NCBI RefSeq assembly: GCF_964355755.1
Contig: NC_092675.1
Span: 14,666,912-14,730,911, forward strand
Direction of reading: 5' to 3'
DNA from: Antedon mediterranea
Lineage: Eukaryota; Animalia; Echinodermata
DNA length: 64,000 nucleotides
A model generated the notes under the pieces. It was not told the origin of the DNA. It made no database searches and saw only the letters and a list, made by a program, of their open reading frames with translations. The translations under genes were made by a program, and so were the position numbers. Positions 5,517-38,731 of this stretch are shown here, piece after piece (the stretch's first letter is position 1; each line of letters begins with the position of its first letter).

Positions 5517-8500
5517 TTATACTATCATAATCTTATTTCTTAAAGCTACCCATTTTTCTATACTTGTTTCTTTATTGTTATATTTTTCACATTCAATGTT
5601 ATATAACATATTGCTTTTAAATGAATTCCATAAAGATTTACCCACTGGCTTATTTAGTGCAGATAACATTTTTATTCTATAAATAGTAAATGCTGCAAAC
5701 GTGTAAATATAATCTATTAGCTTATCTCCCGTTCCTAGTATTAATTGTTTAAATGATATATTATTGTGATTTAAACTTACAAAGATACTAAGCATTTTCC
5801 TCCAATATTTCTGAATAAATCTACGACTAAAAAACAAATGATTTTCATTTTCAATTTCTCCACATTTGTCACACGTTTGTGTTTCCTTAACTTTCCACTG
5901 ATACAGCCGTTTGTTGGTAGGCAGTATTCTATGTAACATCTTATAATTGAATTGTGCTAGTTTCTTATCTTTCATTTTACATACTTTCCGTAACCAAGAA
6001 GTTTTCCAATCAATGTTGTTATCATTGAAGTACTCTTCCCATTTTAGTTGTGACATTGGAGTAATGAAATATTCTTTCACAAACCATGAGTATATTAGTT
6101 TGGTAGTATTAATCTCATACTTGGTCCCAACTAATTCATCATTATCATCACAATTGAAAATATCTACCTCCTTAATAATACGTTTCCATTGAATTGGTAT
6201 TGCCTTAATAATGCACAAATACTCATTTAACCAGTTTGTTTTACATTGTAGTTTCACCAGTATTTCGTTTGATGTTAAAAAAGTGTTCTTATTAACAATG
6301 TCTTTAATACTGATAATGCCACTGTCAATCCAATGCTTGTAGAAAAGTGATTTTTTTTTTAGTTTAACGTAGTGGTTTCCCCACAGTTGCTCATTCATTA
6401 TATCGTTATAAGTTTCAGGGTTTTTTTTAGAGATTCTGTTATAATAATTTATGTAGGCTTTTATCATATTTTTGTAAAACAATGGAATTTTATCAGAATT
6501 AACATCAATAATGTTATAACATGACATATTAAGTAAAACATTAACATCACATATTTTTTTAATATAATACATTGGAATATTTTTCCATTTAGCACCATCA
6601 TCATTCATAATTCTTTATAACCAGCCACACATGAGTGCGTTAACATGAAGAGTAAAATCAGGCATTTTAATGCCTCCCATCTCAACATCACCAATTAGAG
6701 TTTTTCTTTTTATCTTTTCCCTTTTATTGTTCCAAATAAAATTATATATTAGATTTGTAACTTGTGTATATACATATTTTGGAACATCAGTGATATTTGC
6801 AGCATATGTTAATTTAGATAGTGCAAGACTTTTCAGGATTATTATTCTACCAAAAATTGAGAGATTTCTAGCATTCCATTGTTTTAAAGTCTTTTCTAGC
6901 TCTATTAATTTAACATCCCAGTTTTTTCTGGTACATTCTTCTGTATTATACCCTACATATATGCCTAAAATTTTGATCGGGTGTTTTACCCAATTTAATT
7001 CTAAAGGTCTATCTATTCTGTTCTTCCATTTACCAATCCAAAAAGCATTGGTTTTTTTTTTATTTAGTGTCATTCCAGATACTTCACAAAAACGTTCAAT
7101 TACACTGACTGCTGACTTAATACTTTTGTCATTACCAACATACAAAACAGTATCATCGGCTAATTGGCTTATTCTAGCTTCTATGTTATTTTCATTATTT
7201 GGAAGTTTAATACCCTTATAGTAATCTTTGTTTCTTATTCTAGATGCCATTACTTCAACCACTAAAATGAATAACAGAGCAGATAGAGGACAACCTTGTC
7301 TAATACCTCTTTCCATTTTAAAATTGTTTGAAACCCAACCATTGTTAACTGTGACACATTCAACGTTATTGTATAATACTTTTACCCAGTTACAAAAGAA
7401 CATTCCAAAGTTAAACTTTTCTAGAACATTGAACATAAAATCTCTACTAATAGAGTCCAAAGCCTTCTTAAAATCTACGGTAATTATTGCCCCTTCGATA
7501 TCATTACACTCTGTATAATAAAGCAGGTCTTCTATTAACCGAATGTTTTCACCAGCGAAACGGCCTTTTATATAACCTTTTTGGTCTGAACTTACTATTG
7601 ATTTAATAACCATTTTAAGTCTGTTACTTAATACATGTGCAAGAATTTTGTAATCGGTGTTTAAGAGGGTAATGGGACGCCAATTATTCAAATTTTCTCT
7701 TTCTCCATCCTTGAACAAAAGGGTGATTACACCTCTTTTTTGCGAAAAGGATAATTCTTGAGAATTATAACTTTCATTTAACGCATCGCAAATTAAATGT
7801 TTAATATTATTCCAAAAGAACACATAAAAGTCAACACTTAGACCATCCGATCCAGGTGTTTTATTTTTTTCCATCATTGAAATGGCCTTTTTACACTCAT
7901 CAATAGTGACGTAACCTTCACAATTTTCTTTTTCTATTTCTGAAAGCTTGTTTATAATAGAATTACAAAGGTATTTATTAATTTTTCCAGGGTTTATGAC
8001 ATTTTTTGCGTATAATCCTTCGAAATGTTGTATTTGTTCCTTTAAAATATCAATTGGGCTCGTTGCTAAGCTCCCATCTTTAGTAATTAAACTTTTTATG
8101 TGTTTCTTTTTACTTTTGGATCTTTCTAACCCAAGAAAGTATTTTGTATTCCGCTTGCCTTCCTCTATCCATTTTACTCTGGACCTAATTTGCGCGCCTT
8201 TTGCTTCTACATTATAAATGTTTTCAAGCTCTATTTTTTTGTTTTCAATTTTATTTTCAATGGTTATATCACAATTTTGAGTATTCATAATTGTTTCATT
8301 TAAGTTTTTTATTTGTTTTTGTAATTTTTCTTTCTTTTTATTCTGGTTTTTATTTTTTTTGTTTTCCGTATGCAATTGAAAATTCTTTTATTTTTGTTTT
8401 TACAAGCTCCCATAGCAAACTTGCACTTACAGGTTCTCTATTATTTTTTAGTATTGAAACATCAATTATTTTAATTACTAATTTTGTAAATGTTTCATCT

Positions 8501-9282
8501 TTCAGAAAGCTATTGTTGAACATCCATAAACCAGGACCGCGTTTTTTTTCATGCAAATCTATTTTAATTGATACCGCCTGGTGATCTGTGAGAATAGCTG
8601 GACGAATGTCACAGGCTAAAACATCTCCATTTGAAAAGAGATCTTCTGATATTAACCAGTAATCCAGCCTACGGAAAATGTTGTTAAATCTCTTACGCCA
8701 CGTAAATTGTCGCTTATTCATGTTTTTGGATCTCCAAATATCATTTAAATTTAAATTTTTCATTAGGTTTTTAATCGTAAAAACAGATTTATCAGACCTA
8801 TTTGCGCTACCTTTTTGGTCAATGTCACTATTCATGATGCAATTCAGATCTCCACCTAGAATGATAGAATTACCCTTCCCTCCATCAAAGTCATTGTAAC
8901 ATTTGTGTATGGTCCTAAAGAATGCACTTCTATTTTTGCTTTCATTAGGAGCATAAATATTTATAATGTCCAATTCCTTTTCATTTATCATTAAATTAAG
9001 AAATATATATCTTCCATCAATATCAGTTAACTTTTTAACAATTTTGCATTCAAGACCTTTTCGTAATAGTATCGACACTCCTCTACTATGTGAATTACCT
9101 ATACTATGGATCGCTTCACCTTCCCAAACAAAGTTTGATTTATTAATAATCTCATTTGTTAGATGGGTTTCCTGAAGCAGACATATATCCGCTTTTTGAT
9201 CTTTTACCCATTGGAATACCTTATGTTGCTTATTTATATTTCTAGCTCCTCTAACGTTTAGTGTTATACAATGTAAATTCAT
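5517..9282 (-). pseudogene. Tx1 ORF2 (APE endonuclease, reverse transcriptase, C-terminal zinc-binding region), disrupted
   Basis: APE motifs TLNVRG, LQETH, GGDLN, RLDY, TDH. RT motifs PGSDGL, WRPITLLNTDYK, RQGCPLS, QLADDT. One frameshift in an A/T homopolymer near 8355 and one in-frame TAA at 6615-6617. Confidence 0.9.
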
Positions 9283-9370
9283 AAGATTAGAGTAAAGAGC
9301 TTCCTTGGGAAATTACAATATTTAGAATACATATTATTAAGATTAAATTACTTGTTTTTGTTTCTCTTTC

Positions 9371-10672
9371 TTAAACTTCTTTTTTCAATACTCTTTGTTT
9401 TTTCTTCTGTCCTGCCTTCATTTCTGACTGTTCCTTCAGATCTCTTGCTGCTTTCTTGTTTGTGCTAACACTTTTACTTTTTTGCATACTTTTTTCAAAG
9501 TAGTCAGTTACCTTCTTCTGTTCATGCTCCTCTCTTTCCCCAACTTCCTGCTCCTCTCTTTCTTCAGCTTTCTGGTACTTTCTTCCCGGTACTTCTTGTT
9601 CCTCTCCTTCTTCAACTTCCTCCTCCTCTCTTTCGTCCACTTCCTGCTCTTCTCTCTGCTCCTCTCTGTCATCATCTTCCTGCTCATTTTGGTTTGTGTG
9701 TTGTTCTATAGTGATCACACTTGTTTCTTTCTGCGCATTTTCATCATCTGATGATTCACTACTTCCATCAATACTAAACACTTCATCATGTGTTTCTGTA
9801 TCAGATTGTACCGTAGCTCTTTTCCCGTAGTGGTTATCGTTAGCATTATTATTTGTTGGGTTTTCAAAGTTAAAAACCGATTCCCAAACTTTATTAATGT
9901 ATGCACCAGGTGAACCAGATGATGATACATTATGCGCTTCAACATTACATCTGTCCCTAGTATGCCCTGGTAAATGACACTTGAAACAGATTATATCAGC
10001 TTTGCATTGAAAAGCTAAATGCCCAGTCTTTGTACATTTGTTGCATTTCACTTCCTGACCGTCATGAAAAGCCCGTGCTCTAAAACCATTTATTATTATC
10101 TGTCTTGGTATTGGCGATTTTAGCTTTTCTACAACGACAGCTCTGTCACCGTTTAGCCAGCTGGTTAACTGACCATTAACCCTTATTTTTAGCCTTGTAA
10201 CATCTCCTATTGGTTTGCATCCTAGCGCTTTCAACTTGCTAGCAATCTCTACGTCAGCAACCGATAATGGTATATCCTTTATGACTATTCTCGTTGTTTC
10301 CATGTTGTTGTATGCCAAATAAGGATTTTTATCATGAATTGTAATATTACAATTCCTAATGTTTAGTCCATTCGTAATTAGTTTCACTCTATCATTTCTA
10401 TTATTTAGATAAATTCGCCATAGGTTCCGTATTTTTTGAACACCGATTATACTTTCTGCAGCAATTATTTTTAGTAGGGCTATACATAGGTCTTCATCTT
10501 TGAAAAAACTTTTTCCTGTTGGTATTTGATCAGCCTTCAAAAAGATTGGCTTCACTACACTACGTTCTTTGTTTACTGTTTGCCCGTTCATCCTGCTGAT
10601 TTTGTCACCGTCAGCCTGTGCAGCACTGTACATTCCTTTGTTAGTCCCGTTTCTATGGGTTTTTGACGCCAT
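9371..10672 (-). CDS. Tx1 ORF1 gag-like nucleic-acid-binding protein, 433 aa
   Basis: Two CCHC zinc knuckles (CNKCTKTGHLAFQC, CFKCHLPGHTRDRC), an RRM-like region (VIKDIPLSVAD...WLNGDR) and an acidic tail. ORF is intact. Confidence 0.88.
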   Translation of the reverse strand: MASKTHRNGTNKGMYSAAQADGDKISRMNGQTVNKERSVVKPIFLKADQIPTGKSFFKDEDLCIALLKIIAAESIIGVQKIRNLWRIYLNNRNDRVKLITNGLNIRNCNITIHDKNPYLAYNNMETTRIVIKDIPLSVADVEIASKLKALGCKPIGDVTRLKIRVNGQLTSWLNGDRAVVVEKLKSPIPRQIIINGFRARAFHDGQEVKCNKCTKTGHLAFQCKADIICFKCHLPGHTRDRCNVEAHNVSSSGSPGAYINKVWESVFNFENPTNNNANDNHYGKRATVQSDTETHDEVFSIDGSSESSDDENAQKETSVITIEQHTNQNEQEDDDREEQREEQEVDEREEEEVEEGEEQEVPGRKYQKAEEREEQEVGEREEHEQKKVTDYFEKSMQKSKSVSTNKKAARDLKEQSEMKAGQKKKQRVLKKEV

Positions 10673-12252
10673 TGTTTGGCTTTCACCGGGCTTAGACGTG
10701 AACGATATACAAATTGTTTTTTCCTAGTATTTCTTTCAGGTAAAAACTTCCACCTTAACAAAGACTTGGTTTAACTTGACTTATTTACTGTTTTATACTC
10801 ACTTAGAAATCAATCGAGATTTAGAAAACGTCAAATTTTAACTATATTTCAGGAGCTGTAAAAAACTATACCTTGGTTAAGTAAAATCACAACGCCCTCC
10901 TCGATTGAAATAGTTAAGTACATGTAATGATACACCACTATGACTTTTATATTCTTTGTAATTATTAATAATACTATTAAGAAGCAACTGTCAGTATTAA
11001 AGTTTAATTATGTGTAAACAGTACCACCACACTCGTAAAAAAAAATTGTGCTTTAAATGGGACACAAATGGTTTATGTATTTAATGTCAACGGTTTTTAA
11101 TTTATCCCCGAAGGGCACGTAAATTTGCCTACTTGTGTTATACCAAATGTGGGGAGAGATTGGAATGTTCCATTCATCGCCAAGCAATCCTTTGGTATAA
11201 ACGCATATTAAATCTATCAAAATAGTATTTTTTTAAAGAAAATCGGACTGTTTTCAACATTATGATGCTTTACTCGAGCTGTTCAACCGGTTTTCAGCTA
11301 TTAAAAACAATTATCCAAGGAGGAGATAGGAAAATGCGAAACATCCTCGTATTATTGTGTGCGGGTATTTTTCAAGACGGATATCCATTAGACAGTGTAT
11401 TCCACGATCGGAAAACACCCCTATTTGGGGCAAATCGTTGAACCTAAATTCGTTTTAATTGTCAATAACTAATTATCTAACTCAATTTAATTAGTAAACA
11501 GGGTTACATCAGGTGGTTAAAATCAGTAACGAAAGTACGAACCAACTTTATATACCATTGAGTAAAAATTCTAGAAATAACGCACGATTTACCGAATTTT
11601 GCCCTTACGTAAATTTATATATAGATTATGTTGTCACGCATCAGTGAGCTGACTTACCGAATACCAAAGAGAGTCGATTGAGTCCGAAACGAACCGATGG
11701 AGGAACTCTCAGTAGTATAATATCCCGTACAGTCCAATGAATAATTCATAAATTAATTAATGAATATTAATATATTAATTATGAGTGTAATTAATATGAA
11801 TGAATAATTAATTAGGGGGGTAGTTTTATGAATATTTAATAATTAAAATGGTATTATTTTTGAATAAATGAATAAATTAATTTGTTTAGCGATCTCAGTC
11901 CAATGAAGAAGTAATAAGATGTTTTAATATTCATGAATATTAATATATTTTTATTAATATGAGGGGTATTTTAATGAATAATTAGTAAATGAGTGATAGT
12001 TTTATGTATAATTTTCAAACGTAATACATGTATTACATAATGTTTAAATAAATATTTACATTTAAATATTAAAGACAATGTGCTTACCTTCATTGAGAAG
12101 TCTGATGTACAGTTTAATGAATAAAATCCACAAGTTTAATCAGCTTTGATTACTGTTTTTTATGTTTGTATAAGGAATAATAACATCAATTCGCTGTCTT
12201 TCCATGGAATTAGTTTACATGTGAGGCGTGGACAGGTCATTTTTTGTAATTC

Positions 12253-12698
12253 TGTGATTTTAGCGGGTATGTGACGTCATCCGGCAATGAACCAATAAGA
12301 TTCCTTATAAGCATAATGCTAATAAAATTAGAATTCGTTGTCCTTGTTGAGATATTCAAAGATATTAAAAGTTATTTAATTATTTTTTTAGTTTTTTATC
12401 CTTTTGTTTTTTCGTTTAGTTACATAACCGCATTATTTTTTAAGGGTATTCCTTCAATATATAAAGATGGTAATAAATAAATAAATAAAAATTAAAAATA
12501 ATGTGCTTACCTTCATTGAGAAGTCTGATAATATAGTATATTTTAATGAATAAAATCTACAAGTTTAATCAGCTTTAATTACTGCTTTTTTTATGTTTGT
12601 ATAAGAACAAAATCATAACATCAATCCGCTGTCTATTTTTTCAAATCCTGTGATTTTAGCGGGTATGTGACGTCATCAGGCAATGAACCAATAAGATT
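12253..12698 (+). promoter_or_regulatory. Duplicated CRE/ATF + CCAAT module in the Maverick terminal region (mirrored at ~22775-23220)
   Basis: TGACGTCA at 12272-12279 and 12668-12675, each followed ~13 bp later by CCAAT. Further CAGTCCAATGAA copies near 11730, 11896 and 12744. Function is inferred. Confidence 0.45.
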
Positions 12699-13023
12699 AA
12701 TCTACCAATCATAATTCGTTGTTTTTGTAAGCGTAGCGATCTCAGTCCAATGAATAAGTAATGAGATGTTTAAATATTCGTGAATATTAATATATTTTTA
12801 TTAATATGAGAGTGTTTTAATGAATACTTAGTAATTGCGTTGGTATTTATTCTAAGAATTATTGAATTAAGTATGATATATTTAAATTATTTTATTTTTA
12901 ACACGGTACCTGATTTACTATATATATATACACATTGTTAATTTGAAAACAGTACAGTTTTCCTGCTTTAGATTTTTAACATTTAGTCATCTGTTCTTTA
13001 TCCTGCTGTTATTATCTATCAGG

Positions 13024-13716
13024 ATGAATTCTACTCAAAATCAATCCGGTAGTAAGAGAGTTTTTTCTTCTTCAAAAGGACAGAGTGCTGTATCTAATCG
13101 AGTAAAGATACACAAAGTTTCACATCAACACGGCACAGCAGTACCTTCAAATTGTATGACGTGTTTAATGGCGATTCAACCCCCACCTCCAATGAACGTT
13201 GATTTCAATAATGTATCTAATACTGAAGAAGACGAACATTATAGATCGAGAATAATTTCTGAAGAGGAGAGGATTTTATACGACGACACGTCATCGGTAG
13301 TTGACTACCACCTATTTCTAGCAAGAAAAGCCGATGTAGAAGATGAGGTAAAAGATGAGGTGTTTGCAGAAGAGTACCTGAACCCTGTGCTGGAGGCGGA
13401 GATTAAGAAAGAAACTACCGAACTTGAGTACAAAGAAATAATGAGAACAATTGAGAAGGTTTTCATAGAAGAATTTATATTCATTCTGAAGGACATGGTT
13501 GAACGTTATAACTTTCACGGCTCAAGATATGAACAACTCCTAACATTTTTTCGACCAATTCTGGCATTGAAACTTGTGGACAATAGCGCTACCCATTTTG
13601 AATGGGCGCTAAACTACTTTCATTTACGTTGCATCAATGTTGATGCGTTCGATAAAGCCATAAAGTTGATTACAAATGATTCAGAACTTTTTAATAAGAT
13701 TCTTTACCAATTGTAA
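13024..13716 (+). CDS. Orphan 230-aa cargo protein (left-arm copy)
   Basis: Long open frame in very AT-rich DNA with ATG at 13024. HxH...CxxC motif, PPPP, acidic middle and helical-looking C-terminus. No family recognised. Confidence 0.65.
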   Translation: MNSTQNQSGSKRVFSSSKGQSAVSNRVKIHKVSHQHGTAVPSNCMTCLMAIQPPPPMNVDFNNVSNTEEDEHYRSRIISEEERILYDDTSSVVDYHLFLARKADVEDEVKDEVFAEEYLNPVLEAEIKKETTELEYKEIMRTIEKVFIEEFIFILKDMVERYNFHGSRYEQLLTFFRPILALKLVDNSATHFEWALNYFHLRCINVDAFDKAIKLITNDSELFNKILYQL

Positions 13717-13971
13717 TTTGTACAAATTTAAAATAATATCTTAACACTTTTTTAATTAATGTTACATAATTTTATAATTCTTATTTCTTTTCGGTAAATT
13801 TATTATTATTATGGTTATAAATTATATTGAAATAGAATGTGTGTTAAAATAAAGGTTGTGTTTTTTTCTTTTAAAAGCAACAAGAACGAAAATGAAATTT
13901 GATCTTTGCGTGTTATTTAAGTATTTGATTTATTTTTTTAATTTTCATTTGGGTGAATGAGGGTAATGAAT

Positions 13972-14203
13972 ATGAATGAGTACTTAAGAAAAGTATATTA
14001 AGATCCTAAGCATCCTGATAGTTTTGGTGGTGTGGACCGACTTTATCAAAATGTAAAAGACGATTTAAATATTACCAAGAGACAAGTTCAAGACTGACTG
14101 AACAAGCAATACATTACACACATCCATTCAACGTAAATTCAAACAAAACTGGGTACTTGTAAGTGCTATTGATGAACAATGGGGAATGGATTTGGAAAAA
14201 TAA
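13972..14203 (+). pseudogene. Maverick retroviral-like integrase, N-terminal remnant
   Basis: MNEYLRKVY*DPKHPDSFGGVDRLY...QVQD*LNKQ, then after a frameshift RKFKQNWVLVSAIDEQWGMDL. Matches the YYDP..P.SFGG / IDEQWQ.DL pattern of Polinton integrases. Confidence 0.85.
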
Positions 14204-15248
14204 CGTGTATAAAATTTGATTCAGACAAACTGTTTGCAAAATCAAAGGTTTGACTCTAGATTTCTAAAAATCAAAGGAAGTCAATTTTGAAATAGTTGGT
14301 AGCATGGTACGAGGAATCGGACTGGAAAAAATAACAACAACTAATCCTAACAAAATAAACCGTAAACCAAAATCTCACTTAATATTTATTTTTTATAAAT
14401 TTGTAAAAGTAGTTACCCTATTTTAATTCATGGTAAATTTATTTTTCGAATTAATTTAATTTGTTTTATTTTCTGTTGAATTTTTATTATTATTATGTTT
14501 GTAAAGTGTATTGCAATAGATTTGTTTAATAAAATAAATTAATTATGTTTTGACTTAATTTATGTCAGTGTAAATTTGTAAAAGTAGTTTTCCTATTTTA
14601 ATTCATGATAAGTTTATTTCTTGACTTTGCTTAATTTTTTCTTTTCTGTTAAAAGTAGAATGTGTATTGAAATACATTTTGTTTTTAACATCAACAACAA
14701 AAATGAAATTTGATCTTTGCGTGTTGTTTAACTCGTGTATGAAGTTTTTGAATTTGTTAAATGTAATTGCAAACATACATATTAAATGATTGTGATTAAA
14801 AATATTCTGTTTACTTTTTATTTTTTATTTTAAACAGTAGTATTTTTAACAGTAGTTATATTTTATATATAGGTAATATTACAAAAATAAACATACAAAA
14901 TGTATAAAGCATAGACTTATTAAATTTAAATACAATTTCTTTATTTCAAAATGAATTTCATTTTATACGTGTTTTCAATTTTAAATCTTTTAAGAAAGAC
15001 ACAATACGTACTGATATAAAAACGCACACAAAAGGAAACAAATTTGAGACGCACGGTTTGTAACGACACTTTCAATAAGAAGGAATATTATAAATGTATT
15101 TTTACCAAATTTATAAAGTAAATGTTTATTATTGAGAAATATACATTTTAGATAAATGATAACACATCTAAAATTAATTAGAGAGATCAATACAATATGG
15201 TGTTCATAATAATTTGTTTTGATGACTAGAGGAAACATCTGAAGACAT

Positions 15249-15818
15249 TCAACGAAAAACAAGCGTTAACACCATACCAGTCACTAAAAATGCCACTGCT
15301 TCGAAAAAAAACATCTCCCTTCCTACACAGAGACAAATTCTGAACGAAAATAATAAATAAAAATAATTAGTAAACAAAACACGCGCATTATAAATAATGA
15401 TGATGAATAATTTAAGAATATTTGTTAAACTACCCACGAACAAAAAACGAACCATACTAACCGACTCATCGTCATTACGAAGTTCAAATAACGAAAACTT
15501 TTCCTTGAAAAATCCACAGGAGACACGTTTTACATTTTCTAACTGCAATTCTGTGTCACATTGTGTCGCAACACATGTACATACAACGAGTCCTGTCACA
15601 AGTCTGCCGACGTTTATTTTTCTATCGCTCATCATTTGTTTTAATACATAATACAGCGCTTCCAAAGAAATATCTTTACACAATTCTAACACATTAAAAT
15701 TGTTTTCCAACTCTTTACAAGCACGAATAGCACTCTGGAGGATGGGTGAATCCAAAACAACTAACCCCGTCATTTTATATTCAATGTATGCTAAAACTAT
15801 TTCCTCTAAATCAACCAT
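15249..15818 (-). CDS. Bcl-2-family-like protein (left-arm copy)
   Basis: BH4-like IVLAYIEYKM, BH3-like AIRACKELENNF, BH1-like MMSDRKINVGRLVTGL, C-terminal hydrophobic anchor AVAFLVTGMVLTLVFR. Probable intron. Confidence 0.72.
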   Translation of the reverse strand: MVDLEEIVLAYIEYKMTGLVVLDSPILQSAIRACKELENNFNVLELCKDISLEALYYVLKQMMSDRKINVGRLVTGLVVCTCVATQCDTELQLENVKRVSCGFFKEKFSLFELRNDDESVSMVRFLFVGSLTNILKLFIIIIYNARVLFTNYFYLLFSFRICLCVGREMFFFEAVAFLVTGMVLTLVFR

Positions 15819-17218
15819 AACACTCGACAAAACAAATGATAATGGATGTAATTACCAAGAAAGTTACAACTTAAAACCTTTATTTTTGTTTTTAAAAAGA
15901 AGTTGTAACATAGAAACTAATTTTGTCAGGAAATGTGTTTTTATTATTTATGTGATTTATTTGTGTTTAGAAAGTTACAACATTAACATTTAATTTGGTA
16001 AAAAAATGTGAATATACGGAGCCGATTGTAATTTTTAATCCTTAGTATACTGAGAGATTTTATAAACAAAAAAAGAGCGAACGGAAATTAATGATTGCAG
16101 ATTAGACATATAGAAATGGATTGAAATTGGAAATCTACATGATCAAAGAAAAGAAACCCATTGTTCCGACAGAAGCTAATGACATTTACAAAGGATGACA
16201 CACTTTGAATAGAATAAATACCGTATAACATACTTAAATTTTGTCAAGATAGTTGTCAAAAATAAATAAAATATATTATACTGAATTTACTTTGTACATT
16301 TATTTAATTTAGGCCGTAATTAGGTTTGTTGTTCATTTATGATTGTGACAAAAAAAAAATACATACTAATAAAACAGCTATAGGCCTATAAAAAAAGTAA
16401 AAAAAAAAAAAAAATAATGATTCAATGTTATAATTTTATTTACCTGTCATTATGTTAATAAAACATATATAAATTTAATTTATGTCATGTTAGATATATT
16501 TTCAAGAACATTTGTTACATACAAATAATTTTGTAAAGAAATTTGTTACGTAAGATAAATTTGTTAAGAAGTTTGTTTCATAAAAATAGTTGTGAAGATA
16601 AATTTGTTAGGGCCTACATAAAAATAATTTTGTAAAGAAATTTGTTACAGAAAATTATTTTGCAAAGAATTAGTTGCATCAATTGATTTTATCAAACGTA
16701 TGTAACATAAAAAAATTATGTTGTTGAATAAAATATTTTGTAATTCAGTCCATTTGCTCAGTAGTTTGTTTAAGTTGTTAAGTCTTGTTTGTGTAATATT
16801 CTTGTAAATAAAAGAATTTACTTTTAACCTTTGTAATTATTTTGTAAATATCATTTATGCATTTTTTTTTTCGTAAATAATTGAATTTATTTATACTTTT
16901 TTTGTATGGGAATCAATATTTGTTTATACATTTAATTGTGATTATAGATTTCTTCTTTATTTAGTATGTCGATTAATTTCAGATTCAGAAACATGTTACA
17001 CAAGAAACAAAAATTGTCATGAAATTCGTTACATAAAAAAATAATTTATCAAGAATCTTTTTTTTACATAAATTTAAATTTATCATTAATTTTGTTATAA
17101 AATTTATTTTGTCATTACATTTTGTTACATAAAAAATAGTTGTTTCATGATTCTTGTTTCTTTTGTTCAGTACTTATATGAAAATTCAAGTTAAGAACGC
17201 AATGACAATGACTGGATG

Positions 17219-17398
17219 TTTAGCGTGATTAGCGGACCGCTTTTCTTCGGTAAATCGGTATTTGTTAACACTCTTTTAGAGAATAATTACTTTGACAAGT
17301 CGTTTGATGATATGACATAGTGTTATGGCGAATATCAAACTTAGTTTACGGAACTAATTACTGCAACATCTGACATAAGTTATAAGAAGGGTATACTT
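17219..17398 (+). pseudogene. Maverick packaging ATPase (FtsK/A32-like) remnant
   Basis: FSVISGPLFFGKSVFVNTLLEN...*CYGEYQ...SYKKGI: degenerate Walker A plus the WCYGEWQ-like motif. Two stops. Confidence 0.75.
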
Positions 17399-18077
17399 AT
17401 ACATTGGATGTTTTCGATGTTAGTAAATAACACAATGGTGAATAACTAGATGTTTACACCTTCACTGCTATAATTACAGTTAGAATGTCATGAAGGGTAA
17501 ATCGGTATTCTTTAAAGAATTAGGCCTATAAAACAATTAAATTGTCGAGTTGTTTGTGTTTACATGTGTGTCATAGTAGAGAATGAATTATAAAACCATT
17601 ACATTGTCGAGTTTCTTGACGTTAGAGAAGTAAATGCTGTTTGTGTTTACATGCGTGTCATAGTAGAGTTTTGTGTTTATATGCGTGTCATAGTAGAGTT
17701 TGTAATTACATTTTTTTTTCAATATAAATGTATTATATGTTATCGATAGTTGTTGAAAAAAAAAATGTAATTACAAACTCTACTATGACACGCATATAAA
17801 CACAAAACTCTACTATGACACGCATGTAAACACAAACAGCATTTACTTCTCTAACGTCAAGAAACTCGACAATGTAATGGTTTTATAATTCATTCTCTAC
17901 TATGACACACATGTAAACACAAACAACTCGACAATTTAATTGTTTTATAGGCCTAATTCTTTAAAGAATACCGATTTACCCTTCATGACATTCTAACTGT
18001 AATTATAGCAGTGAAGGTGTAAACATCTAGTTATTCACCATTGTGTTATTTACTAACATCGAAAACATCCAATGTAT

Positions 18078-18257
18078 AAGTATACCCTTCTTATAACTTA
18101 TGTCAGATGTTGCAGTAATTAGTTCCGTAAACTAAGTTTGATATTCGCCATAACACTATGTCATATCATCAAACGACTTGTCAAAGTAATTATTCTCTAA
18201 AAGAGTGTTAACAAATACCGATTTACCGAAGAAAAGCGGTCCGCTAATCACGCTAAA
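18078..18257 (-). pseudogene. Packaging ATPase remnant (right-arm mirror)
   Basis: Reverse complement of 17219-17398 with the same stops. Confidence 0.75.
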
Positions 18258-19656
18258 CATCCAGTCATTGTCATTGCGTTCTTAACTTGAATTTTCATAT
18301 AAGTACTGAACAAAAGAAACAAGAATCATGAAACAACTATTTTTTATGTAACAAAATGTAATGACAAAATAAATTTTATAACAAAATTAATGATAAATTT
18401 AAATTTATGTAAAAAAAAGATTCTTGATAAATTATTTTTTTATGTAACGAATTTCATGACAATTTTTGTTTCTTGTGTAACATGTTTCTGAATCTGAAAT
18501 TAATCGACATACTAAATAAAGAAGAAATCTATAATCACAATTAAATGTATAAACAAATATTGATTCCCATACAAAAAAAGTATAAATAAATTCAATTATT
18601 TACGAAAAAAAAAATGCATAAATGATATTTACAAAATAATTACAAAGGTTAAAAGTAAATTCTTTTATTTACAAGAATATTACACAAACAAGACTTAACA
18701 ACTTAAACAAACTACTGAGCAAATGGACTGAATTACAAAATATTTTATTCAACAACATAATTTTTTTATGTTACATACGTTTGATAAAATCAATTGATGC
18801 AACTAATTCTTTGCAAAATAATTTTCTGTAACAAATTTCTTTACAAAATTATTTTTATGTAGGCCCTAACAAATTTATCTTCACAACTATTTTATGAAAC
18901 AAACTTCTTAACAAATTTATCTTACGTAACAAATTTCTTTACAAAATTATTTGTATGTAACAAATGTTCTTGAAAATATATCTAACATGACATAAATTAA
19001 ATTTATATATGTTTTATTAACATAATGACAGGTAAATAAAATTATAACACTGAATCATTATTTTTTTTTTTTTTTTACTTTTTTTATAGGCCTATAGCTG
19101 TTTTATTAGTATGTATTTTTTTTTTGTCACAATCATAAATGAACAACAAACCTAATTACGGCCTAAATTAAATAAATGTACAAAGTAAATTCAGTATAAT
19201 ATATTTTATTTATTTTTGACAACTATCTTGACAAAATTTAAGTATGTTATACGGTATTTATTCTATTCAAAGTGTGTCATCCTTTGTAAATGTCATTAGC
19301 TTCTGTCGGAACAATGGGTTTCTTTTCTTTGATCATGTAGATTTCCAATTTCAATCCATTTCTATATGTCTAATCTGCAATCATTAATTTCCGTTCGCTC
19401 TTTTTTTGTTTATAAAATCTCTCAGTATACTAAGGATTAAAAATTACAATCGGCTCCGTATATTCACATTTTTTTACCAAATTAAATGTTAATGTTGTAA
19501 CTTTCTAAACACAAATAAATCACATAAATAATAAAAACACATTTCCTGACAAAATTAGTTTCTATGTTACAACTTCTTTTTAAAAACAAAAATAAAGGTT
19601 TTAAGTTGTAACTTTCTTGGTAATTACATCCATTATCATTTGTTTTGTCGAGCGTT

Positions 19657-20226
19657 ATGGTTGATTTAGAGGAAATAGTTTTAGCATACATTGAATATAA
19701 AATGACGGGGTTAGTTGTTTTGGATTCACCCATCCTCCAGAGTGCTATTCGTGCTTGTAAAGAGTTGGAAAACAATTTTAATGTGTTAGAATTGTGTAAA
19801 GATATTTCTTTGGAAGCGCTGTATTATGTATTAAAACAAATGATGAGCGATAGAAAAATAAACGTCGGCAGACTTGTGACAGGACTCGTTGTATGTACAT
19901 GTGTTGCGACACAATGTGACACAGAATTGCAGTTAGAAAATGTAAAACGTGTCTCCTGTGGATTTTTCAAGGAAAAGTTTTCGTTATTTGAACTTCGTAA
20001 TGACGATGAGTCGGTTAGTATGTTTCGTTTTTTGTTCGTGGGTAGTTTAACAAATATTCTTAAATTATTCATCATCATTATTTATAATGCGCGTGTTTTG
20101 TTTACTAATTATTTTTATTTATTATTTTCGTTCAGAATTTGTCTCTGCGTAGGAAGGGAGATGTTTTTTTTCGAAGCAGTGGCATTTTTAGTGACTGGTA
20201 TGGTGTTAACGCTTGTTTTTCGTTGA
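19657..20226 (+). CDS. Bcl-2-family-like protein (right-arm copy)
   Basis: Mirror of 15249-15818 with ATG at 19657. One amino-acid difference (V/F) inside the putative intron. Confidence 0.72.
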   Translation: MVDLEEIVLAYIEYKMTGLVVLDSPILQSAIRACKELENNFNVLELCKDISLEALYYVLKQMMSDRKINVGRLVTGLVVCTCVATQCDTELQLENVKRVSCGFFKEKFSLFELRNDDESVSMFRFLFVGSLTNILKLFIIIIYNARVLFTNYFYLLFSFRICLCVGREMFFFEAVAFLVTGMVLTLVFR

Positions 20227-21270
20227 ATGTCTTCAGATGTTTCCTCTAGTCATCAAAACAAATTATTATGAACACCATATTGTATTGATCTCTCTAATTA
20301 ATTTTAGATGTGTTATCATTTATCTAAAATGTATATTTCTCAATAATAAACATTTACTTTATAAATTTGGTAAAAATACATTTATAATATTCCTTCTTAT
20401 TGAAAGTGTCGTTACAAACCGTGCGTCTCAAATTTGTTTCCTTTTGTGTGCGTTTTTATATCAGTACGTATTGTGTCTTTCTTAAAAGATTTAAAATTGA
20501 AAACACGTATAAAATGAAATTCATTTTGAAATAAAGAAATTGTATTTAAATTTAATAAGTCTATGCTTTATACATTTTGTATGTTTATTTTTGTAATATT
20601 ACCTATATATAAAATATAACTACTGTTAAAAATACTACTGTTTAAAATAAAAAATAAAAAGTAAACAGAATATTTTTAATCACAATCATTTAATATGTAT
20701 GTTTGCAATTACATTTAACAAATTCAAAAACTTCATACACGAGTTAAACAACACGCAAAGATCAAATTTCATTTTTGTTGTTGATGTTAAAAACAAAATG
20801 TATTTCAATACACATTCTACTTTTAACAGAAAAGAAAAAATTAAGCAAAGTCAAGAAATAAACTTATCATGAATTAAAATAGGAAAACTACTTTTACAAA
20901 TTTACACTGACATAAATTAAGTCAAAACATAATTAATTTATTTTATTAAACAAATCTATTGCAATACACTTTACAAACATAATAATAATAAAAATTCAAC
21001 AGAAAATAAAACAAATTAAATTAATTCGAAAAATAAATTTACCATGAATTAAAATAGGGTAACTACTTTTACAAATTTATAAAAAATAAATATTAAGTGA
21101 GATTTTGGTTTACGGTTTATTTTGTTAGGATTAGTTGTTGTTATTTTTCCAGTCCGATTCCTCGTACCATGCTACCAACTATTTCAAAATTGACTTCCTT
21201 TGATTTTTAGAAATCTAGAGTCAAACCTTTGATTTTGCAAACAGTTTGTCTGAATCAAATTTTATACACG

Positions 21271-21502
21271 TTATTTTTCCAAATCCATTCCCCATTGTTC
21301 ATCAATAGCACTTACAAGTACCCAGTTTTGTTTGAATTTACGTTGAATGGATGTGTGTAATGTATTGCTTGTTCAGTCAGTCTTGAACTTGTCTCTTGGT
21401 AATATTTAAATCGTCTTTTACATTTTGATAAAGTCGGTCCACATCACCAAAACTATCAGGATGCTTAGGATCTTAATATACTTTTCTTAAGTACTCATTC
21501 AT
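21271..21502 (-). pseudogene. Maverick integrase remnant (right-arm mirror)
   Basis: Reverse complement of 13972-14203 with the same stops. Confidence 0.85.
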
Positions 21503-21756
21503 ATTCATTACCCTCATTCACCCAAATGAAAATTAAAAAAATAAATCAATACTTAAATAACACGCAAAGATCAAATTTCATTTTCGTTCTTGTTGCTTTT
21601 AAAAGAAAAAAACACAACCTTTATTTTAACACACATTCTATTTCAATATAATTTATAACCATAATAATAATAAATTTACCGAAAAGAAATAAGAATTATA
21701 AAATTATGTAACATTAATTAAAAAAGTGTTAAGATATTATTTTAAATTTGTACAAA

Positions 21757-22449
21757 TTACAATTGGTAAAGAATCTTATTAAAAAGTTCTGAATCATTTG
21801 TAATCAACTTTATGGCTTTATCGAACGCATCAACATTGATGCAACGTAAATGAAAGTAGTTTAGCGCCCATTCAAAATGGGTAGCGCTATTGTCCACAAG
21901 TTTCAATGCCAGAATTGGTCGAAAAAATGTTAAGAGTTGTTCATATCTTGAGCCGTGAAAGTTATAACGTTCAACCATGTCCTTCAGAATGAATATAAAT
22001 TCTTCTATGAAAACCTTCCCAATTGTTCTCATTATTTCTTTGTACTCAAGTTCGGTAGTTTCTTTCTTAATCTCCGCCTCCAGCACAGGGTTCAGGTACT
22101 CTTCTGCAAACACCTCATCTTCTACCTCATCTTCTACATCGGCTTTTCTTGCTAGAAATAGGTGGTAGTCAACTACCGATGACGTGTCGTCGTATAAAAT
22201 CCTCTCCTCTTCAGAAATTATTCTCGATCTATAATGTTCGTCTTCTTCAGTATTAGATACATTATTGAAATCAACGTTCATTGGAGGTGGGGGTTGAATC
22301 GCCATTAAACACGTCATACAATTTGAAGGTACTGCTGTGCCGTGTTGATGTGAAACTTTGTGTATCTTTACTCGATTAGATACAGCACTCTGTCCTTTTG
22401 AAGAAGAAAAAACTCTCTTACTACCGGATTGATTTTGAGTAGAATTCAT
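21757..22449 (-). CDS. Orphan 230-aa cargo protein (right-arm copy)
   Basis: Mirror of 13024-13716 with two amino-acid differences (K/E, E/G). Confidence 0.65.
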   Translation of the reverse strand: MNSTQNQSGSKRVFSSSKGQSAVSNRVKIHKVSHQHGTAVPSNCMTCLMAIQPPPPMNVDFNNVSNTEEDEHYRSRIISEEERILYDDTSSVVDYHLFLARKADVEDEVEDEVFAEEYLNPVLEAEIKKETTELEYKEIMRTIGKVFIEEFIFILKDMVERYNFHGSRYEQLLTFFRPILALKLVDNSATHFEWALNYFHLRCINVDAFDKAIKLITNDSELFNKILYQL

Positions 22450-23814
22450 CCTGATAGATAATAACAGCAGGATAAAGAACAGATGACTAAATGTTAAAAA
22501 TCTAAAGCAGGAAAACTGTACTGTTTTCAAATTAACAATGTGTATATATATATAGTAAATCAGGTACCGTGTTAAAAATAAAATAATTTAAATATATCAT
22601 ACTTAATTCAATAATTCTTAGAATAAATACCAACGCAATTACTAAGTATTCATTAAAACACTCTCATATTAATAAAAATATATTAATATTCACGAATATT
22701 AAAACATCTCATTACTTATTCATTGGACTGAGATCGCTACGCTTACAAAAACAACGAATTATGATTGGTAGATTAATCTTATTGGTTCATTGCCTGATGA
22801 CGTCACATACCCGCTAAAATCACAGGATTTGAAAAAATAGACAGCGGATTGATGTTATGATTTTGTTCTTATACAAACATAAAAAAAGCAGTAATTAAAG
22901 CTGATTAAACTTGTAGATTTTATTCATTAAAATATACTATAATATCAGACTTCTCAATGAAGGTAAGCACATTATTTTTAATTTTTATTTATTTATTTAT
23001 TACCATCTTTATATATTGAAGGAATACCCTTAAAAAATAATGCGGTTATGTAACTAAACGAAAAAACAAAAGGATAAAAAACTAAAAAAATAATTAAATA
23101 ACTTTTAATATCTTTGAATATCTCAACAAGGACAACGAATTCTAATTTCATTAGCATTATGCTTATAAGGAATCTTATTGGTTCATTGCCGGATGACGTC
23201 ACATACCCGCTAAAATCACAGAATTACAAAAAATGACCTGTCCACGCCTCACATGTAAACTAATTCCATGGAAAGACAGCGAATTGATGTTATTATTCCT
23301 TATACAAACATAAAAAACAGTAATCAAAGCTGATTAAACTTGTGGATTTTATTCATTAAACTGTACATCAGACTTCTCAATGAAGGTAAGCACATTGTCT
23401 TTAATATTTAAATGTAAATATTTATTTAAACATTATGTAATACATGTATTACGTTTGAAAATTATACATAAAACTATCACTCATTTACTAATTATTCATT
23501 AAAATACCCCTCATATTAATAAAAATATATTAATATTCATGAATATTAAAACATTTTATTACTTCTTCATTGGACTGAGATCGCTAAACAAATTAATTTA
23601 TTCATTTATTCAAAAATAATACCATTTTAATTATTAAATATTCATAAAACTACCCCCCTAATTAATTATTCATTCATATTAATTACACTCATAATTAATA
23701 TATTAATATTCATTAATTAATTTATGAATTATTCATTGGACTGTACGGGATATTATACTACTACTCTCGTACAGAAAAAAAAATCGCCCCCCCCCCCCTC
23801 CCCCCGCCTGTTGG

Positions 23815-23943
23815 AATCACTTCTCAGTGGAGTACGTCCTCTAGCCTTCGGCTTTACCTCACTGCCTGTCACTCACAGTCACACACAACCAGTTAGATGT
23901 AAAGCCGAAGGCTAGAGGGCGTACTCCAGACTGAAAAGTGATT
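23815..23943. repeat. ~130-bp hairpin MITE-like element
   Basis: AATCACTT-CAGT-GGAGTACG-CCTCTAGCCTTCGGCTTTAC pairs with GTAAAGCCGAAGGCTAGAGG-CGTACTCC-ACTG-AAGTGATT. Confidence 0.6.
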
Positions 23944-25754: not shown

Positions 25755-28700
25755 AGGTGATCATTTAAAATAAAATGATCACCTATTGTTATTGTAAAAA
25801 ATCTTTATTAGGTGATCATTTAGAATAATGATCACCTATTGTTATTGTACAAAATCTTTATTATTGTTTTCCTTGTTGTTATTATTCTTCTTTCTGTACA
25901 CTTTTTGTGTAACAATTATCTCAAAAAGTTAAATAGCAATGATTTCAAAAATGTTACAATGTCTTTCAAATTCTTTAACTTAACCATAATAAGCTTTTAC
26001 AAGATACAAGATACAAGATAACTTTATTGTCAAAATTGTTAACAATTTCGAGATATGTTTTGTACCTGAGTAGAATAAATAATACGATGTGATAACTATA
26101 TAAATAAATACAAATGATACAAGTGACTATCTTGAAAAGTTTTTGTTAAATAAATTGCATGCTATGTACATTGGTGAAAGTATGAAACGGTTTGTGGATA
26201 TTTTTTCCTGTGTCAGTCTAACCCTTCCTGATTTACTTATAATGATATCTGAATGTAATGGGTGTGATGGGTCTTGCATAATTGTGTCAAATTTCTTAAG
26301 TATGAATGTATTAAACATTTCATCTAAAGATTTCACTTCTACACCGATAACTCTGCTGGCCTTGTTTAATCTAATCTCTGAATTTGACTTTTACTGTTTA
26401 CATTGATATGAGAAAACCAAAACAATAATACAATAAGAAATGATTGATTGAACAACAGAGGAATAAATCACATGAATGAGAACTAACATTAAACCGTTTC
26501 ATTTTGTATATAAAGTACATTCTCTTATTAGCCTTGGTATGGAGTTCTTTAGTGTTGCTCTCCCAATTTAGTTTATTATCAATTATTAATCCCAAGTACT
26601 TATGACTTTTTACTATTTCAACAATTTCATTATCGATTTCAATATTTACATGATTAGTTTTATTTTTCCTTCTAAAATCGACAATAACCTCTTTAGTTTT
26701 TTTGGCATTTAGTTCAAGAAAATTTTGTTTACACCAGACTACAAAATGTTCAACATATTCATTAAACAGGGATGTATTATCATTTGAAATTAAACCAACT
26801 AGGCAAGTATCATCTGCAAACTTAACATTAAATGATTTACTTGGGTCAATATCACTATAAAAATCAGAATATAATGAAAAAAGTAAGGGTGAGAGAACGC
26901 ATCCTTGTGGTGCACCTGTATTACAAGTTAACTGCTTAGATACGCTACCCCTAAACTTAACAATCTGTGTTATTTCATTTAAGAAATCAGAAATCCAGAG
27001 ATTTAATCATGGATTTATTCCTAACTTTAATAATTTATCTGTAAGTAAATGAGGCTGAATTGTGTTGAACGCTGCAGAAAAATCTAAAAATAATATTCTA
27101 GCATAGTTATTCGGATATTCAAGATGACCATATACCTTTTGCGTGAGCGTCATAACTGCGTCAACTACGCCCCTTTTTTCCCTATAAGCAAATTGGTTGC
27201 TATCAATCATACCCTTTGTCTCATTATTTAATATATTTTTTATCATTTTCTCAAAGCATTTCATGGGGATGGCTGTTAATGCCACTGGCCTATAGTCATT
27301 GCAAACAGTACATTTATAATTTTTTGGAATCGGTGTGATAATAGCAGACTTCCAAAGGGTTGGTACATGACATACATCAACCGACCACTGAAATAGGTAA
27401 TGAAAAATATACTTTAATTGAAAATAACAGGTCTTCAGAACTTTCCCTGAGATTTGATCTGGCCCTGTGGCTTTCTATGACTTGACTTTATTAGGGTTTG
27501 TTCCATATCAGTTATATTAATTAGGATATTGTTATTTCCTTCTTCTCTGATTGAGCTCTTAGTATTTTCATTTTGATTTTTCCCATAAATCCGAAAAGTC
27601 ACTTTTTTCAAACCTGACATAAAAAGTATTTATGTTATCCGCTGTGATGTCAGTATCCTTACTCTTATTTACTGCAACTTTGTAATTACCCGTAACTTTA
27701 TTCATACTTTTCTAAACGGTCTTGATATCACCCGACTTAAATGTGTCCTCAGTGTGTTTGGCATAGTTCTGCTTATCTCTTTTAATTACTCGTCTCACTT
27801 CTCTAATTTTACTGGCTTCGAAATCTCCTTGTTTAAACGTTTCATATTTTTCTTTCATTAGTAATCTTAATTTCTTTGAAACCCATGGTTTATTATTTGC
27901 ATAGATTTTTACGAATTTGATTTGTACAATGGAGTCCTCACATCTTTCTACCGTGTCGTCAAGTGAATTGCTCTTAAACGTATCCCAACCTGTTCTATCA
28001 AAACAATCCTTTAGATCATTTATAGCAACTTCTGACCATATCTTGACCGGTTTTTTAATGATGTTAAATTTTCTTAATTTCTGCTTATACTTTGGCAATA
28101 ATTGAATAAGATTGTGATCCGATTTCCCAATTCCATTTTTTGCTTTTGCCAGGTACGCATTCGGTATATTTCCATAACATTCATCCAATATGCTGTCTTT
28201 CCTCGTCGGTACCTTCACGTATTGATGCCAATGAGGTAGTGATCTTTTGAGCATGCAATGATTGAAGTCGCCTAACACCAGCTTTAACGCATCTGGTGAC
28301 TCACTCTCTAATAATCTCATTTCATGTGCGACTTTTTTCCCTGCTTCTATACGACTTCCTTCTTGTTGAACATATGCAACTGACACAAAGATCTGTGGTA
28401 TTTCTCTCGGCAAGTAAAAAGGGCGTAGTGCAATCACAATGAATTCAGCATCTTGACAGCAATGTTTGTTTACTACCTTGATGTTGTTACACCAACGTGT
28501 GTTAATGTATGCGCAGACAAAACCGCCTCCCTCTTTTCCTGTAACATGCAGATCTCTATCTCCCCACACGCATGAGAACCCATCAATACTGACATCTGCA
28601 GTGGTATGTTGGTCTTTAAACCGCGTTTCGGTGAAACACAGTAAGCTAGATTCTCGGAAGTCTTGTAATGCCATACACGCTTCCAGTTGATCGAGCTTGT

Positions 28701-29258
28701 TACACAGGGATTGAGCATTTCCAAAATTAACAGTTGATAGAGGAAGACGATTTAATCGTCTGAGCCTTTCCTTAATTCCCCCTCTGCGTCCCCCTCCTTT
28801 TACGTGGCTTTGGATTGTAATTTAGTCAAAGTTATACATATTTCAAAGAGCGCGCATTGCGCTTCTACGTGTCAAATTTTCTTCCAATTCCTAAATATAT
28901 TTGATCAATTCATTATCTTTCGAAATTGTCATCTTCAAATTTATTTGATAATTCCATCATACCAAAAAATTAGAACATGATGTGTGTCCCGTAATTTCAC
29001 CTACGCTACACTGTATATAGATATACAGTATATACTGTACATATTGTATATATTGTATAGTTGTACCTATTATATGCCATATTGTATATGGCATATAATA
29101 GGTACAACTATACACTATGCACTATAAGCGTATGCATCATGTCATAGGATTTTACGATCGTATGTTAACGTACATGCATGTTTTAAAAAAATTATTTTCA
29201 GTAAAATGATAAAAATGATCACCTATAATTCGTCAAAGTGACGAATTAAATTCTAGTT
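25755..29258 (-). mobile_element. HINE/Helentron-type non-autonomous element inserted at TT in LINE ORF1
   Basis: Duplicated hairpin AGGTGATCATTT..AATGATCACCT (25755-25837). Subterminal GATCACCTATAATTCGTC-AAAGT-GACGAATT...CTAGTT at 29217-29258. Removing it restores ORF1 (PMLI|SIVSAAV). Confidence 0.65.
26000..28817 (-). mobile_element. Rex1/Babar-clade LINE, degraded and 5'-truncated
   Basis: APE CFTET, RPFYLPRE, GDFNH, SDH. RT FLDFSAAFNTIQPH, TGAPQGCVLSPLLFSLY, KFADDT. (TATCTTG)n tail at 26000-26020. Many stops and frameshifts. Confidence 0.85.
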
Positions 29259-34500: not shown

Positions 34501-35425
34501 GAACCAGCATGAGTCATTTAATGAAATGCTGTACTTAGAGGAGGGTGATAAGACACCACCGCTGTATGGGGTGATAGTAGGGGGACCAGCATGAGTCACA
34601 TAATGAATGCTGTACTTAAGAGCATGAGTGATAAAACACCGCCGTATGTGGGGGTAGTTAATGAACCCGCATAAGTAATTATGTGGTGGTAGTAGGGGAA
34701 CCAGCATGAGTCATATAATGAATGCTGTACTTAAGAGCATGAGTGATAAAACACCGCCGTATGTGGGGGTAGGTAATGAACCAGCATAAGAAATTATGTG
34801 GTGGTAGTAGGGAAACCAGCATGAGTCATAATATAATGAATGCTGTACTTAAGAGCATGAGTGATAAAACACCGCCGTATGTGGGGGTAGGTAATGAACC
34901 AGCATAAGACATTATGTGGTGGTAGTAGGGAAACCAGCATGAGTCATATAATGAATGCTGTACTTAGGAGCATGAGTGATAAAACACCGCCGTATGTGGG
35001 GGTAGTTAATACCAGCATAAGTAATTATGTGGTGGTAGTATGGGAACCGGCATGAGTCATAATGAATGCTGTACTTAAGAGGATGAGTGATAAAACACCG
35101 GCGTATGTCGGCGTATGATCGAACCAGCATAAGTAATTTATGTGGTGGTAGTATGGGAACCAGCATGAGTCATATATGAATGCTGTACTTAAGAAGATGA
35201 GTGATAGTGATAAAACACCGCTGTATGTGGGGGTAGTTAATGAACCAGCATAAGTAATTTATGTGGTGGTAGTATGGGAACCAGCATGAGTCATATAATG
35301 AATGCTGTACTTAAGAGGATGAGTGATACAACACCGGCGTATGTCGGCGTATGAACCAGCATAAGTCAATTATGTGGTGGTAGTATAGGAACCAGCATCA
35401 TATCGTCATAATGAATGCTGTACTT
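34501..35425. repeat. ~114-bp tandem repeat (~8 copies) inside Ngaro
   Basis: GAACCAGCATGAGTCA...AATGAATGCTGTACTTAAG...GTGATAAAACACCG recurs at ~34699, 34813, 34931, 35044, 35157, 35278 and elsewhere. Confidence 0.9.
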
Positions 35426-37628: not shown

Positions 37629-38731
37629 AGGTAGGTAAATGTATGTCTGATCAGACCAACAACTCTATTGGCTCTATTACTGACGATTCCAACGTGTTTG
37701 CTGAACTTGCACCCGATTCTGCTACTGTCCACAGGTGCTATCTGTAAAACTATAGCAAGTTATACACGTTGCTGTCTGCTATAAATGCTGTACTTTTAAC
37801 ACACGGTACACTGTCTGTAGCACAGTGTGTGTTGACAATTTACAATGATGTACAACCATAGGCAGGTTTTCGTACTGCCATGCAAGAATGGATAGGTGTT
37901 TTCCGCCGCTTTTAGGCCTTCTAGTCAATTATTGTTATTATACGAATTACGTAATTAGTCTAGTAGCTCATCTACCTTTATAGCAGGGCAAAATGAATAT
38001 TGTAGCTAGGCTAGGCCTACGAGTCTAGCGGGAAATCAACCAATTATTTGGTTGGATACGAGTTTAGGGTAGGAAGTTAAGTACGAGTTGGCATGGGTAC
38101 GAGTCGACTAGGTGTGAATCGACCAGGGTACACCCGGCCGCCCTACTAGAGCATAGGGAAAGAATATATATCACAAGAATGAGTATTCCGCGATTTTTGC
38201 ATGAGAAATTTGTAACAGAGAGCTCCAGAGAGTGATGCCCGCCCTCATAAGGGCGGATGTATACATACTAAATAATACTTGATTTAATAGATATTATACA
38301 TGTCCCATTAAATAGAATTATGATAATATATTTTGCAATTGTAAACTATTTTATAATACATATTTATTAACAAACTAGTGTACATTCACTTTTACAGACA
38401 ATTATTTACTAACATGCTAAATTAGTTCACAAAAAAGGCCTAACACAGCAACACCAAAAATCAACGAATCGTTACTCAACACGGCCTATTCTTTACCATT
38501 GCCGGGTACTACTCTATGCCCGGTAAATTAAGTATTGTTTTTATGATATAAATTAGTATAAAATACATGTTATTAATAGGATAAAATGTTAAATTTCATT
38601 AACATTTATTTGTTTTACCAGAAACAATTTAAATATAGGAATATTAAACTATCCTTTGTGAAAACGCGTAAACACCAACACGCCCGGTCACGCTATCGTA
38701 GCGCCCGGTTGATAAAGGGAACTGTTTATAC

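Follow-up and report, generated by a model that had tools for sequence, protein, structure and literature searches.

A 64,000-nucleotide stretch of the genome of the echinoderm Antedon mediterranea (NC_092675.1, positions 14,666,912 to 14,730,911; the whole stretch is referred to as the window) carries a 12,052-bp element at 11711–23762 that, by its sequence, is a non-autonomous, deleted derivative of a Maverick/Polinton made of two inverted copies of one end. Almost the whole of the element consists of two inverted arms, and what appears to be new here is a Maverick deletion derivative that has kept remnants of core genes and has been turned into a 12-kb palindrome. The parts of the element and of its target site duplication (TSD) are as follows.

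11705 to 11710, forward strand: left copy of the TSD, ACTCTC, 6 bp
11711 to 17722, forward strand: left arm, 6012 bp, with the (AGT)2 end motif at its start
17723 to 17752, no strand: spacer or hairpin loop, 30 bp, asymmetric
17753 to 23762, reverse strand: right arm, 6010 bp, with the (ACT)2 end motif at its end
23763 to 23768, forward strand: right copy of the TSD, ACTCTC, 6 bp

Self-BLAST of the window returns 11711–23762 as a single inverted alignment of 99.6% identity, which confirms the palindrome as a real feature of the assembled sequence. The sequence-only reading of this DNA had described one 12-kb hairpin with AGTAGT/ACTACT termini and a direct ACTCTC duplication, arms of about 6 kb, a 30-bp spacer and roughly a dozen substitutions between the arms; self-alignment agrees on every count, and the aligned arms differ by exactly 12 substitutions (9 transitions; 0.20%) and by 4 one-base indels. 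The differences are evenly distributed along the arm (Kolmogorov-Smirnov p=0.55) and all four indels fall in short single-base runs. The element begins with AGTAGT and finishes with ACTACT, the 6-bp match of the flanking direct repeat has a chance probability of about 5e-4, and outside the termini 0 of the first 12 bases are complementary, so that the symmetry stops exactly at the element ends. Within the 64-kb window the arm sequence has no match elsewhere, the spacer has no second copy (the best other match is 20 of 30 bases) and the flanks have no empty-site counterpart.

Long-read and amplified libraries are known to handle long palindromes badly, and fold-back chimeric reads might have mirrored the left half of a true element and left it through the true right terminal repeat. 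The placement of the four indels in single-base runs would suit such an artefact, as would the fact that the palindrome is known from assembled sequence. A mirrored read would, however, yield identical arms or random errors, whereas the substitutions found are evenly spread and mostly transitions, with changes on both arms relative to the related copies described below, and the symmetry ends precisely at both termini. An origin in the assembly is considered highly improbable.

The Maverick origin put forward in the sequence-only reading is borne out by the ends, by the TSD and by gene remnants. The end motif and the 6-bp TSD match those of published Mavericks (PMC8097293; this and the other papers are cited for the portions of their text that were available). 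They also match a control locus, L005 (384–15912), a complete-looking 15.5-kb Maverick in a metagenome contig with 646-bp terminal inverted repeats (TIRs), AGTAGT and ACTACT ends and a 6-bp TSD. The polymerase, ATPase and integrase genes of L005 are open, and Pfam gives polymerase B, A32 ATPase and rve-chromo integrase matches for it. The reading frames of the arm contain short broken pieces of 45–80 codons each and no intact core gene. Three of these pieces can be assigned, the first with the aid of P0001, a protein with an rve domain (PF00665) and one protein among four candidates.

13972 to 14194, forward strand: N-terminal remnant of a Maverick-type rve integrase, aligned with P0001 residues 1–77; mirror at 21280–21502, reverse strand
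14220 to 14369, forward strand: C-terminal tail remnant of a protein-primed DNA polymerase B; mirror match at 21165–21251, reverse strand
17195 to 17440, forward strand: broken N-terminal remnant (Walker A region) of an A32-like packaging ATPase; mirror match at 18129–18254, reverse strand

The piece at 13963–14100 matches P0001 with E 3e-14 and 81% identity, residues 1–77 align both in the left arm and at the mirror position, and a profile search of the whole window finds the integrase start in each arm with an independent E-value (iE) of 4e-7. This remnant is broken by two in-frame stops and one frameshift, which spreads it over two frames, and is then cut off. The polymerase tail (profile iE 2e-6, and 3e-5 in the 14-profile search of the whole window) follows it directly, placing the joint of a large deletion near 14200–14220. 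The ATPase start is recognized by its profile at 17222–17350 (iE 3e-4), and the top match of the remnant among 713 open reading frames (ORFs), with E 2e-4, is an ORF with a Pfam Pox_A32 match; searched alone, the remnant has no Pfam match and no useful phage match. When 14 profiles built from the ORFs of two long Maverick loci were run on both strands of the whole window, the integrase, polymerase and ATPase profiles (3 of the 14) matched inside the palindrome only, save for one weak integrase match outside it at 27676–27825 (iE 0.08), and the other 11 had no match in the window. Capsid and protease are presumably among those 11, a judgement made from ORF size, as Pfam gave no names; the element thus shows neither intact integrase, polymerase B and ATPase genes nor any match to the profiles taken to be capsid and protease, as an autonomous Maverick would. 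A six-frame Pfam scan of the arm gave a weak Bcl-2 match as its sole match and no transposase family.

Because integrase, polymerase and ATPase remnants lie in each arm, the sequence demonstrates the descent of the arm from a Maverick through large internal deletions that left no intact core gene. In its (AGT)2 and (ACT)2 ends, 6-bp TSD, terminal inverted repeats and remnants of rve integrase, polymerase B and A32-like ATPase, the element is like the Mavericks and Polintons of PMC8097293 and PMC4196379 and like L005. Unlike intact Mavericks it has no intact core gene and seemingly represents only one end of its parent, and its 6.0-kb inverted repeat makes up 99.75% of its length, as against TIRs of 46–1447 bp in intact vertebrate Mavericks of 12,723–24,620 bp (PMC8097293) and 646 bp in L005. 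A search with P0001 gave 63 integrase loci in metagenome contigs (63 of 227 candidate stretches) and no locus in viral contigs. Inverted repeats of at least 150 bp occur in 10 of the 63 loci, none longer than about 650 bp per alignment, and a whole-element palindrome occurs in none of them, these being short-read contigs, in which palindromes would collapse.

Related copies in other samples bear on how the two arms came to be alike. Seven public runs share part of 10700–19700, four of them from one sample, S4 (organism B). The S4 runs share only 54–57% of sequence words with the region, and for this reason S4 is judged to be a relative rather than the source individual. Runs X2 and X3, which share 7–10% of words, do not enter the comparison. 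Contigs of four runs, three from S4 and one from organism A, were placed on 10900–17765, that is, on the left arm only, and all 30 bins of this interval are covered in each of the three S4 runs. A gap-free S4 contig of depth 222 (X4, record 14) spans the integrase/polymerase deletion joint, implying that the deleted form is multi-copy in S4. The sequence-only reading had one end of a Maverick copied back on itself; the duplication of a Maverick end stands, but the template was not an intact element, being already heavily deleted and present in several copies in S4. A contig of organism A (run X1) placed on 14029–14379 also crosses the joint region, with 11 other letters and 24 gap letters, and the deleted family may therefore be older than the split of the two species.

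Over 2949 bases, the eight contig pieces listed for the S4 run X4 (of 2496 placed) show 31 differences from the window (1.05%), a distance about five times that between the arms (12/~6010; p 2e-7). Each arm resembles the other much more closely than it resembles the S4 relatives, which makes it likely, as far as these alignments go, that both stem from one recent template. Of the 12 arm-difference sites, five can be read from the matches listed. S4 has the right-arm base at 12324, 12772, 13351 and 15822, while the number of differences in overlapping contigs points to the left-arm base at 11918, indicating that both arms have changed since. An apparent 372-bp deletion in S4 (joint 12323–12696) was rejected as a repeat-placement artefact because another S4 contig covers 12252–12464 at equal depth and 12631–12698 is a copy of 12236–12302 (92%). 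Expressed in units of the shallowest single-contig joints, a rough unit in which contig depth is no copy number, the S4 depth is 7–9 over the terminal 1.2 kb, 17–24 in the middle and 6–8 next to the centre. The rough ratios of terminal to centre-proximal depth, 1.0, 1.5 and 0.9, lie closer to the 1:1 expected of palindromes than to the 2:1 expected of elements with ordinary TIRs.

The same comparison speaks to the possibility that two copies of the family were joined centre to centre, either through ectopic recombination or because an integrase acted on the outer ends of two inverted neighbours. The family is multi-copy in S4, and in C. elegans inversions arise through Polinton copies (bioRxiv 2024.01.15.575659), both of which would favour a fusion. 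The arms are, however, 0.2% apart, compared with about 1% to related copies, and they break off at one and the same internal base on either side of a 30-bp spacer, a coincidence that would be surprising in copies of independent origin. Of the origins considered, a fusion of two copies seems the least probable.

The palindrome appears, with moderate confidence, to have arisen by fold-back during protein-primed replication followed by helper integration, a route favoured because the symmetry runs from terminus to terminus inside a TSD and unrelated flanks. Internal deletions would first have produced a gutted family that retained its ends; strand-displacement synthesis from one end would then have run about 6 kb inward and switched template at 17722/17753. 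The product would be a hairpin strand that has a 30-nucleotide loop and carries the same end twice. Re-initiation at the duplex end would open this strand out to a 12-kb duplex that has the same origin at either end, an integrase acting in trans would link the two ends to host DNA by cuts 6 bp apart, and the arms would mutate independently after insertion. Polymerase and integrase would both be supplied by a helper element, and since every displaced strand would refold and so restore a complete duplex origin, the molecule would live on intact Mavericks as a replicating parasite. End-duplicated genomes are known in adenovirus, as are hairpin or palindromic derivatives of yeast linear plasmids.

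This route has precedents in systems already described. Template switching by the protein-primed polymerase of phi29 yields subgenomic molecules (PMC4974454), which the element would resemble as a helper-dependent derivative of a protein-primed replicon, and snap-back genomes are defined as palindromes over their whole length (PMC13506859), a description that fits the element, a whole-length palindrome of one genome end. The replication model for Polintons, which was deduced from their genes, combines a racket-shaped single-stranded intermediate with protein priming (PMC4196379). Unlike snap-back genomes and phi29 molecules, which are free replicons, the element is chromosomal with the footprint of an integrase, and its origin in a polymerase switch is presumed. 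Its length of 12,052 bp, from which the sequence-only reading supposed that it may be packageable, falls just short of the 12,723 bp at which the range of intact vertebrate Mavericks begins (PMC8097293).

A rearrangement in place is the main alternative, though a less likely one. According to this alternative, a deleted Maverick was inserted with its TSD, and its right part, when it broke at a later time, was repaired from its own left end or from a sister copy by copying 6 kb inward, as a one-off event. Both ends and the TSD would be kept and the arms would be nearly identical, as they are here. Such a route has been described for Galileo copies with the structure TIR1-F1-F1-TIR2, and expansion of the inverted repeats of Polintons is said to have been reported (PMC3573991, the latter citing reviews). 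This genome, too, makes large palindromes, an older and unrelated one lying at 37750–64000. On the other side, the longest TIRs of Galileo are about 1.26 kb (PMC3573991), whereas the repeats here are 6 kb long and leave just 30 bp between them, and the near-equal terminal and centre-proximal depths in S4 fit palindromic copies slightly better. The snap-back before helper integration proposed in the sequence-only reading would accordingly be the likeliest route, but extension in place leaves the same TSD and ends.

Several observations weigh against the fold-back route and the shared recent template. A 1053-nucleotide contig of depth 69 (X4, record 16) follows 17172–17671, and its other 528 nucleotides are unmatched among the rows listed, suggesting that beyond the fold most copies in S4 may run on in another way, with a longer arm, another centre or no palindrome; related copies running on past the fold point would also suit extension in place. 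No contig across the spacer is present among the S4 matches listed, and the S4 depth in the middle of the arm is 2–3 times that of the arm ends, depth not being copy number. The 1% distance to S4 could be a difference between lineages, S4 not being the individual of the window, and gene conversion between the arms could also keep them alike. No second copy with the 30-bp spacer and a different TSD was found in the window or among the S4 matches listed. An autonomous Maverick with the same terminus, for which the sequence-only reading had proposed a search, did not emerge either, the terminal 22-mer giving 0 matches both among metagenome contigs and among viral contigs. The element may belong to a mobile snap-back family, its arm sequence being multi-copy in S4, or may be a one-off rearrangement.

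The Galileo/Foldback elements offer another comparison (PMC3573991). Like them, the element is non-autonomous, has internal sequence drawn into long inverted arms and contains internal tandem repeats. Galileo belongs to the P superfamily of cut-and-paste elements, with a P-type transposase, a 7-bp TSD and TIRs of at most about 1.3 kb, whereas the element here has Maverick ends, a 6-bp TSD, 6-kb arms with almost no spacer and no transposase in the Pfam scan of the arm. Non-autonomous Polintons have been named before, among them Polinton-1N1_DR (PMC9341505) and Polinton-N1A_NV (PMC11296320), and some of these, compared here by name alone, may already be palindromes. No description of a whole-element palindromic Maverick was found in the literature searched, mostly by abstract; Repbase and the founding Polinton papers lay outside the search, so an earlier description is possible. 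The word palindrome is absent from the available portions of PMC6431247, PMC5499653, PMC5718144, PMC8097293 and bioRxiv 2024.01.15.575659.

Protein-primed strand displacement would be expected to yield, as a by-product, a palindrome of the entire element that has intact ends and bears the clean footprint of an integrase. If the fold-back origin is true, the element is a fossil of Maverick self-copying, and if a multi-copy family is proven, it would be evidence from the genome that Mavericks replicate outside the chromosome and have a parasite of their own. Fragility and difficult assembly are to be expected of palindromes of 12 kb with 30-bp spacers, and the class could for that reason have escaped notice before long-read genomes. 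In a broader and more tentative reading, to which we give somewhat less than even weight, animal Mavericks would own a class of integrated snap-back defective-interfering genomes, that is, whole-element palindromes spread by helper polymerase and integrase, of a size to suit the capsid of the helper, with both arms regenerated from one template; the present copy would be transitional, with traces of the deleted core genes of its origin, and would carry twice an open Bcl-2-like gene that may keep the host cell alive while a helper replicates.

The remaining features of the arm comprise two open reading frames and three non-coding parts.

13024 to 13716, forward strand: open 230-residue ORF; mirror at 21757–22449, reverse strand, 2 residues differ
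15249 to 15818, reverse strand: open 189-residue ORF with weak likeness to the Bcl-2 family; mirror at 19657–20226, forward strand, 1 residue differs
11711 to 12870, no strand: AT-rich, non-coding end of the arm with old duplications inside it
16492 to 16690, no strand: degenerate AT-rich 30-bp tandem repeats; mirror at 18786–18971
17551 to 17708, no strand: three related 30–38-bp repeats adjoining the fold point

Protein searches detected no relatives of the 230-residue ORF. The 189-residue ORF matches Pfam PF00452 with E 3e-4, under the cut-off, and fowlpox FPV039 in the PDB with E 0.29; its comparison with Bcl-2 clusters gave an atlas score of 0.91 with 210 shared features, a measure of low recognition value. 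Further protein searches for this ORF found nothing, and its single-sequence fold prediction is unusable (predicted local distance difference test, pLDDT, 43). S4 contigs carry small indels within the ORF, which is thus not uniform across copies, and it is likely to be accessory cargo. The adenovirus protein E1B-19K is anti-apoptotic, and by analogy an anti-apoptotic role for the ORF may be guessed at. The terminal region, which likely holds the terminal repeat and the origin of the parent, contains the duplicated pairs 12047–12199/12472–12634 (84% identity), 11887–11988/12734–12834 and 12236–12302/12631–12698 (both 92%).

The window as a whole is repeat-rich eukaryotic sequence of 33% GC with broken long interspersed nuclear elements. 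Three broken retrotransposons of the type without long terminal repeats lie on the reverse strand at 5517–10723, 26398–28821 and 51554–55292, all with reverse transcriptase matches and the first and third also with endonuclease matches, consistent with a repeat-rich animal genome. The second palindrome, at 37750–64000, is older, decayed and nested, is centred near 50750, has been broken by later insertions and runs off the right end of the window, so that its termini are outside the view. Its colinear inverted pairs include 37750–38157/63589–64000 (96%), 42527–42851/63275–63595 (85%), 44414–44645/59461–59699 (91%), 45750–47541/55483–57239 (91%), 47675–47965/50949–51240 (94%) and 50569–50655/50845–50931. 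It has no DNA match to the 12-kb element and, in the profile search, no Maverick gene remnant; as a second, unrelated palindrome it shows that large fold-back structures recur in this genome. An insertion with 40-bp TIRs at 38159–42498 contains about three tandem 1.3-kb units (97–99% alike), each with its own TIRs. A dispersed 0.5-kb repeat, with copies 88–92% alike at 11111–11629, 43896–44419, 47992–48395 and 49370–49887, has very high depth in S4, and one of its copies ends 80 bp to the left of the insertion site of the element; just to the right of the insertion there is a 130-bp imperfect hairpin (23815–23943). Tandem arrays are present at 34565–35425 (period 115 bp, 7.5 copies) and at 61187–62337 (period 30 bp, 38.6 copies).

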